The notes below the pieces were generated by a model. The model was given only the letters and a program-made list of their open reading frames with translations. It was not told the DNA's origin and did no database searches. Shown here in pieces: positions 23,398-24,090 of a stretch of DNA of 64,000 bases. The translations under genes and the position numbers were made by a program. The stretch comes from Eledone cirrhosa. Taxonomy: Eukaryota. Location of the stretch: NCBI GenBank assembly GCA_964016885.1, contig OZ024740.1, positions 87,854,001 to 87,918,000 on the forward strand, given 5' to 3'. Position 1 is the stretch's first letter. Every line of letters begins with the position of its first letter.

Positions 23398-24090
23398 ACG
23401 GAAAAAATGAAACGAAATTTCATTTCCCTCTCTTAGTACGGCTGTTACTTAAATATAAGTATGTACACGTACATACATATATGTATACAGACGTACAGTA
23501 GTATGTATATATATATATACATACATGCACACACATATATATGTACGTATGGATTCACCGGTGAATCCATATTCACGGTGAATCCATACGTACATATATA
23601 TATGTGTGTGCATATATGTATATATATATACATACTACTGTACGTCTGTATACATATATGTATGTACGTGTACATACTTATATTTAAGTAACAGCCGTAC
23701 TAAGAGTGGGAAATTAAATTTCGTTTCATTTTTATCGTTTTCGGTGCACCCGGCCGATTAACCCACTCGATATGCAAATGGGGCTACTCAGCCGTTAATA
23801 TGCATAAGGTAAGTATATACGTTCAAGAATCTGGCAGGAAGGTATACGTTGCTGACGATAGCTAATAAGCTTTAAACTAGTACAGCGTTCCTTTGTCAGT
23901 GTTGAACAAACGAGCAATGATGGTTGCTAGACACTACGGCTTAATACGGGATGTTTGTTTACAAACACACCGAGCATTATAATAAATGTTCGGTGAATCC
24001 ATACGTACATATATATGAGTGTGCATGTATGTATATATACATACTACTGTACGTCTGTATACATATATGTATGTACGTGTACATACTTAT
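23398..24090 (+). mobile_element. Non-coding hammerhead-bearing element (family F, candidate retrozyme): inverted arm + >1 tandem monomer
   Basis: 23398-23560 is an inverted copy of 23576-23740; cggtgaatccatacg... recurs at 23576 and 23991 (415 nt period); hammerhead at 23847-23887 (G12 mutated); TA flanks. Confidence 0.75.

Follow-up and report, generated by a model that had tools for sequence, protein, structure and literature searches.

The window, the whole 64-kb stretch of DNA analysed here, holds two copies of a short non-coding unit that carries a hammerhead ribozyme motif and lies among Hydra-type Penelope-like elements (PLEs; Table 1). The forward part of copy 1, 514 nt between the fold-back junction and the right (TA)n, has a period of 415 nt. 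As the earlier note had it, the sequence that begins at 23576 recurs at 23991, and 97 of 99 aligned bases are identical between 23576-23682 and 23991-24089. The tandem monomer that the note derived from this repeat holds as far as the period goes, but the insertion amounts to 1.24 units and is thus not an array; Tandem Repeats Finder (TRF) reported no period-415 array at copy 1. Ahead of the forward part lies the PLE-style inverted arm likewise proposed there, a 163-nt stretch identical to 23576-23737 at 155 of 160 aligned bases. The unit measures 415 nt in copy 1 and 406 nt in copy 2, has a GC content of 37% and consists for about a quarter of mixed TA/CA microsatellite. In both copies the tail runs into the head without an ORF between. 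Counting the junction, the longest ATG frames reach 51 aa (copy 1) and 71 aa (copy 2), and no ORF is common to both, which bears out the claim that the unit has no credible ORF.

Table 1. Copies of the unit and Hydra-type PLEs, in window positions.
Feature	Position	Strand	Basis or detail
Hydra-type PLE	8469-12715	-	249-nt inverted arm; 429-nt pseudo-LTRs 3569 nt apart; (TA)n ends; ORF with one stop
Second Hydra-type PLE, frameshifted	18909-22747	-	protein 53% identical to that of PLE 8469-12715
Copy 1: left (TA)n-rich microsatellite, half of target	23238-23397	no strand	TRF period 2, 79.5 copies
Copy 1: inverted 5' arm, the unit's 3' part with its ~55-nt tail in reverse	23398-23560	-	alignment to 23576-23737
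Copy 1: fold-back junction, 15 nt, with short re-copied stretch	23561-23575	no strand	sequence; TRF period 17 at 23553-23588
Copy 1: 5'-truncated upstream partial copy (pseudo-LTR equivalent), tail 23683-23737	23576-23737	+	alignment
Copy 1: unit body, from head-to-tail joint to proximal 3' end, tail missing	23731-24089	+	alignment, family flanks
Copy 1: type I hammerhead with extended helix I	23821-23907	+	core 23852-23858; predicted cleavage after 23882 (GUA)
Copy 1: right (TA)n, half of target	24090-24204	no strand	TRF
Copy 2: 406-nt unit plus 20-nt terminal redundancy, then (TA)n	39780-40205	+	core 39930-39936; predicted cleavage after 39960
Hydra-type PLE fragment	near 46560-46890		

Copy 2 agrees with copy 1 at 245 of 274 aligned bases of the unique part. 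It comprises 1.05 units and closes with the terminal redundancy described earlier, in which 19 of the 20 nt match. We considered these 20 nt as a target-site duplication and rejected this, as the same letters stand inside the unit of copy 1. The reported location in (TA)n applies to both sides of copy 1 but only to the 3' side of copy 2, and all three local 3' ends adjoin (TA)n. The 64-kb window contains no further copy of the unit.

The two copies had also been described as circularly permuted. Mapping of start and end points, a check that the earlier note had suggested, gave variable 5' starts, but the 3' ends fall on two fixed sites ~55 nt apart. One site, the distal 3' end of the family, is shared by the copy 1 arm, which stops just after one form of a 7-nt motif, and by copy 2, which stops just after another. 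The right end of copy 1 leaves the unit ~55 nt earlier, at the equivalent of 23682-23683 (the proximal 3' end). Random permutation was accordingly discarded as an argument for a circle. A circularly permuted appearance has no diagnostic value here because the copies share a 3' end and because terminal redundancy is also found in the full PLE at 8469-12715; it is reported as well for PLEs that have no canonical hammerheads (PMC8557442).

Folded as circles, the two copies reach z scores of -5.6 and -5.8, values inflated by the microsatellite. The unique part folds only modestly better than its shuffles (z -3.0 and -2.2) and no better than the reverse strand (-2.2 and -3.4). A tRNA gene scan returned 0 genes, and a bacterial promoter scan gave an uninformative 1 site versus 0.7 expected.

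We followed the family in public sequencing runs by aligning the reads or contigs of four runs to 23630-24030, with a reference lacking the unit's microsatellite stretch. Runs X1, X4 and X5 were taken from 20 rows in 16 studies that contain part of the unit, many of the other rows having small shares, and X24 was added; X1 and X24 bear organism label A, X4 label B and X5 label C, three labels in all. X1 and the window may have related sources, and X24 is a RAD reduced-representation library of 150-nt reads that samples few sites. No RNA run occurs among the listed runs containing part of the unit. Family matches numbered 12,098 of 16.3 million contigs in X1, 50 of 6.9 million in X4 and 3 of 9.9 million in X5, together with 78,065 of 12.5 million reads in X24. 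Subfamilies lie ~11% apart in the unique part. The longest family pieces listed are 335 nt, and among them none spans 23630-24030 and none has two hammerheads. Pattern scans of metagenome, viral and prokaryote genome contigs gave 0 matches.

Both 3' ends and the graded truncation reappear in these runs. Four contigs of X4 and X5 leave the unit at 23682-23683, the proximal 3' end, and in X24 9,359 reads depart from it at 23720-23721 into dissimilar AT-rich sequence. Behind 23730 family members carry 7-8 extra nt, and the copy 1 arm retains this 7-nt motif. Contigs under all three organism labels cross the head-to-tail joint, and first-mate depth in X24 is 12,986 before it and 3,317 after it. 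Summed contig depth in X1 is a measure that varies with similarity to copy 1 and does not give a copy number; it declines steadily away from the 3' end (Spearman -0.86 over 24 of 29 bins, leaving aside 3 bins at the edges and 2 that cover an indel; -0.75 over 26 bins when those 2 are included). An exponential fit to this depth would give two hammerheads in ~15% of insertions, a figure that, being built on summed contig depth, is not usable as evidence. Strand changes make up 9 of the 15 joints listed (48 more exist) and lie at varied places, although 3 of the 9 rest on one read start. Joints that go back from 24016 or 24030 to 23630 were considered as circle junctions and rejected, as they represent the microsatellite stretch absent from the reference.

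Each local copy has one hammerhead, which the earlier note had called a minimal type I motif. The count and the type stand, but the geometry is canonical and not minimal by the definition of PMC4209133, helix I having 6 bp and a long distal extension, helix II 4 bp, and helix III being a short palindrome. Both copies further share a CUGANGA core, a U-U at the base of helix II and a GUA site, and helix I resumes past an internal loop, 6 bp from the core, for another 16-17 pairs. This canonical geometry is that of the family's majority letters, each local copy carrying one damaging change. In copy 2 the core is intact and helix II has one mismatch. In copy 1 the core reads UAAA in place of GAAA (G12 -> U at 23873). 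G12 is the general base of the hammerhead ribozyme, and the copy 1 motif, judged from its letters, is probably inactive. At 23873 the family letter is G throughout X4 and X5, and it accounts for 99.9% of depth in X1 and 97.7% of reads in X24, so the U is private to copy 1.

The pairing of stem I that had been seen to persist between the copies is upheld by a compensated helix I (cgttg/cagcg versus cgatg/catcg). In the family runs the pair 23849/23885 takes U-G, A-U and G-U forms at matching frequencies (62% and 62% in X24, 34% and 30% in X1; marginal and unphased), and the family letter at 23827 adds one distal helix I pair. No variant falls at 23841-23844 or 23889-23892 among the variants listed, beyond which 37 more exist. 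Loops 1 and 2 of the unit may resemble those of Schistosoma hammerheads. A strict hammerhead pattern matched the window twice, in copy 2 and in another family at 55357, and found 0 matches in each of 50 shuffles. Rfam hammerhead models matched neither copy even at E 10; the 3 Rfam matches to the two copies are chance matches and none is a hammerhead, and no hammerhead family appears among the 150 of 280 window matches listed. On its pairing and core, the family hammerhead is a canonical metazoan type I motif that is predicted to work as a dimer, rather than a minimal PLE motif.

The larger elements nearby offer a direct comparison. The PLE at 8469-12715 has the anatomy of the small element, with an inverted arm, redundancy, a longer end on one side only and (TA)n ends, and it is young, its pseudo-LTRs being 99.3% identical. 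This PLE and the one at 18909-22747 carry the DKT, RWR and CxCX5C motifs defined for the Hydra clade in PMC8557442, which also reports (TA)n-preferring Hydra and Naiad families from Octopus species, a fit with, but no proof of, the octopus host named in the earlier note. The closest named match to the Hydra-type PLE protein is an Argonauta protein (42% identical), and Pfam did not recognise the PLE proteins. Hammerheads of the PLE at 8469-12715 lie in both pseudo-LTRs and in the inverted arm, at 8655 (-), 12224 (-) and 12615 (+). They are of type I with a rare U3-A8 core, a long helix II, a stable helix III and a GUC site, and the minimum-energy fold gives the three-way junction. The core variant has been reported for Schistosoma Cercyon elements (PMC4209133). 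The two direct hammerheads, 3569 nt apart, could release a unit-length RNA.

The proposal that local PLEs mobilised the unit gains from a common target and anatomy, but no convincing sequence match emerged from 18 comparisons of the unit with the ends of the three local Hydra-type PLEs, and the PLE hammerhead is of another build. The best match, an AT-rich 21-22-mer with a score of 32, was reached in 0 of 300 shuffles for copy 1 and in 12 of 300 for copy 2. The earlier note had asked whether any copy is attached to an RT ORF; an RT-GIY-YIG ORF is attached to neither local copy.

Other repeats share the window, which has four distinct hammerhead families in all. Directly after copy 2, at 40380-40809, lies an inverted-arm element whose U3-A8 hammerhead (core 40672, +) belongs to a different family. 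A further family at 55260-55500 (-) has a standard core at 55357, is AT-rich and lies ~100 nt from a (TA)n end; related pieces occur at 24647-24822 and 25252-25423, and this family is probably the 3' end of another PLE. Fragments of the 3' end of the 8469-12715 family sit in (TA)n at 24224-24551, 25495-25630, 37433-37503, 44800-44964, 53391-53525 and 55024-55228. Several of them have fold-back arms, and the fragments cause spurious Rfam matches to miRNA precursors. A further family associated with (TA)n, at 52826-53344 and 56633-56923, has a long inverted repeat, and no hammerhead was found in it. A dispersed repeat of ~190-200 nt is present at 16996-17603, 27783-28006, 32582-33149, 41588-41921, 46027-46256 and 55523-55712, often as head-to-tail dimers or trimers (TRF periods 192 and 201), and has a B-box-like motif; it is probably a tRNA-derived SINE. 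An uninterrupted 1015-aa non-LTR reverse transcriptase frame at 130-3177 (-) is at most 67% identical to its relatives among those listed.

In aggregate, the unit is a fixed-order, non-coding element of 406-415 nt that inserts into (TA)n, has two preferred 3' ends and graded 5' truncation, and joins head to tail without a seam. Mobilisation of the PLE type comes close to being demonstrated by these marks, in that fixed 3' ends, a one-sided tail, 5' truncation and inversion at (TA)n form the PLE signature. We put at roughly 85% the probability that the family is a non-autonomous, PLE-mobilised element with a hammerhead under selection. The earlier note had likewise read it as a non-autonomous hammerhead element using PLE machinery, and the anatomy agrees. 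As neither local copy, with its single hammerhead, can release a monomer, both appear to be dead-end products and are best called monomeric offspring.

Under this reading, master loci elsewhere would hold at least two hammerheads in tandem, and their transcripts would cleave themselves as dimers, as suggested by a helix III that is only a short palindrome. The monomer would then be ligated into a circle. The target would be nicked by a PLE protein that targets (TA)n, most probably a Hydra-clade one, and reverse transcription would start at fixed internal sites of the RNA and copy a variable length, sometimes more than one round. For this mechanism as a whole, that is, a non-LTR retrozyme that borrows PLE machinery through an RNA circle, we consider the odds even.

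What bears on the circle is the template. It must have been longer than one unit and have passed the hammerhead uncut. Had priming at a mapped 3' site started on a cleaved linear monomer, the copy would be expected to end ~270 nt upstream, at GUA. Both copies and the depth profile contradict such a stop, leaving a religated circle or an uncut multimer; depth shows no step at the cleavage site (1.36 versus 1.39 million in neighbouring bins), so a cleaved linear monomer was not the main template. A circle would be the simplest account of a conserved ribozyme in copies that run through the cleavage site, and it has been proposed as the reason for ribozyme selection (PMC4209133 and PMC7229834). 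In vitro, the PLE tail arises from the use of two internal start sites (PMC11167929). Doubt about the circle arises because, in the only PLE tested in vitro, that of the anole, hammerhead mutants did not affect insertion (PMC11167929), and because only one of nine Xenopus retrozyme dimers cleaved, leaving eight uncut (Li, Clavereau and Pollet 2026, 10.64898/2026.07.22.740005).

The template may instead have been an uncut transcript, read-through or multimeric, of a linear non-autonomous PLE, the hammerhead being inherited from a PLE ancestor or having a side role and no circle being formed. We regard this account as possible but less likely than the circle. Fixed 3' ends, 5' truncation, inverted arms and tails need no circle, the anole PLE uses unprocessed RNA (PMC11167929), and non-autonomous Chlamys elements stand head to tail in a clade mostly without canonical hammerheads (PMC8557442). 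It leaves unexplained why the core and the compensated helix I are kept across the subfamilies and under three organism labels. The strictest version of the circle, a true circRNA retrozyme in which a Hydra-clade PLE reverse transcriptase primes at two internal sites of a hammerhead-made circle and rolls past one unit with no homology to its helper, we hold to be rather unlikely. If true, it would make the PLE tail, the partial tandem and the retrozyme circles one mechanism; the unit would be a small natural substrate for testing PLE copying of circles, and its genomic copies would preserve the step that is missing from accounts of the retrozyme life cycle.

It is improbable that the unit is a mere pseudo-LTR or 3' end of an autonomous PLE absent from the window and that the copies are truncated fragments of it. 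Hydra-type PLE 3'-end fragments with inverted arms abound in the window, the pseudo-LTRs of one local PLE are of similar length (429 nt), and among 57 Xenopus retrozyme families 24 matched known transposons, nearly always PLE ends, so that a homologous parent may exist (10.64898/2026.07.22.740005). Against such a parent stand the joint of tail to head, ORF-free in both copies and recurrent under three organism labels, and the loose ends of the family. Among the rows listed, loose ends upstream of 23731 are the unit's own tail, and the 20 of 611 loose-end rows listed hold no single foreign sequence at a fixed inner point. Beyond the one AT-rich match to local PLEs, 0 of 4 unit words occur in the PLE consensus file of PMC8557442, a search for exact words in which line breaks can hide a match. 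A satellite-like repeat, spread at the DNA level by unequal crossing-over or by gene conversion between microsatellites and resembling a hammerhead by chance, is highly improbable, for although microsatellite makes up about a quarter of the unit and Rfam hammerhead models do not match it, all 50 shuffles lack the strict pattern, the helix is compensated and the core conserved, and both the 3'-anchored truncation and the inverted arms point to reverse transcription.

The non-autonomous, PLE-mobilised element that we favour resembles the animal non-LTR retrozymes of coral, mussel and axolotl described by Cervera and de la Pena (2020, PMC7229834), which measure 150-450 bp, have a GC content below 50%, lack an ORF, carry a type I hammerhead and co-exist with PLEs. 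The one-pair helix III capped by a palindromic tetraloop recalls axolotl Amex1, and the U-U at the base of helix II recalls Amex2 (PMC7229834). Unlike the retrozyme arrays of that paper, the local copies are 1.05-1.24-mers with a single predicted hammerhead, and the inverted arm, the tail and the (TA)n target are insertion marks absent from the retrozyme descriptions in the parts of PMC7229834 used here. The Xenopus retrozymes offer a parallel in their common monomeric, non-transposing offspring and proposed PLE dependence (10.64898/2026.07.22.740005). That study, in the parts used here, samples no mollusc and reserves the word active for elements with at least two complete hammerhead units; with one hammerhead per copy, the local copies are not classed as active retrozymes, and no homologous pseudo-LTR was found for them in this analysis.

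Hydra-clade PLEs, Hydra-1_Obim included, share with the unit the partial tandem, the inverted 5'-truncated arm, the one-sided tail and (TA)n, and the non-autonomous Chlamys MRC1 is a further likeness, MRC1-type elements being ORF-less head-to-tail PLE parasites (Craig et al. 2021, PMC8557442). The unit departs from the Hydra-clade PLEs of that paper in having no ORF and a tail of ~55 nt as against 30-40, and its hammerhead differs from those of Hydra-1_Obim (PMC8557442) and the local Hydra element. Similarity of its 3' end to an autonomous partner was not found among the three local Hydra-type PLEs. We found no description of this family or of any cephalopod retrozyme in the literature searched; Repbase, Dfam, the supplements of PMC7229834 and 10.64898/2026.07.22.740005, and Lunse et al. 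2017 lay outside that search and may list the family. By its sequence, the family looks like an animal member, not previously described, of the non-LTR retrozyme or non-autonomous PLE kind.

PLE mobilisation of animal retrozymes via circular RNA was proposed between 2014 and 2020 (PMC4209133 and PMC7229834). Support added in 2026 consists of co-occurrence and pseudo-LTR phylogeny in vertebrates, in a study that argues non-LTR retrozymes to be non-autonomous PLE derivatives; the authors note little direct evidence for the life cycle and that other animals were not examined (10.64898/2026.07.22.740005). Here, a retrozyme-type unit with a canonical, conserved hammerhead shows the complete set of PLE insertion marks and has young Hydra-type PLEs that target (TA)n as neighbours. 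Rather than a new kind of element, it offers anatomical evidence for PLE mobilisation in an invertebrate and a compact test case for a circular versus a linear template.
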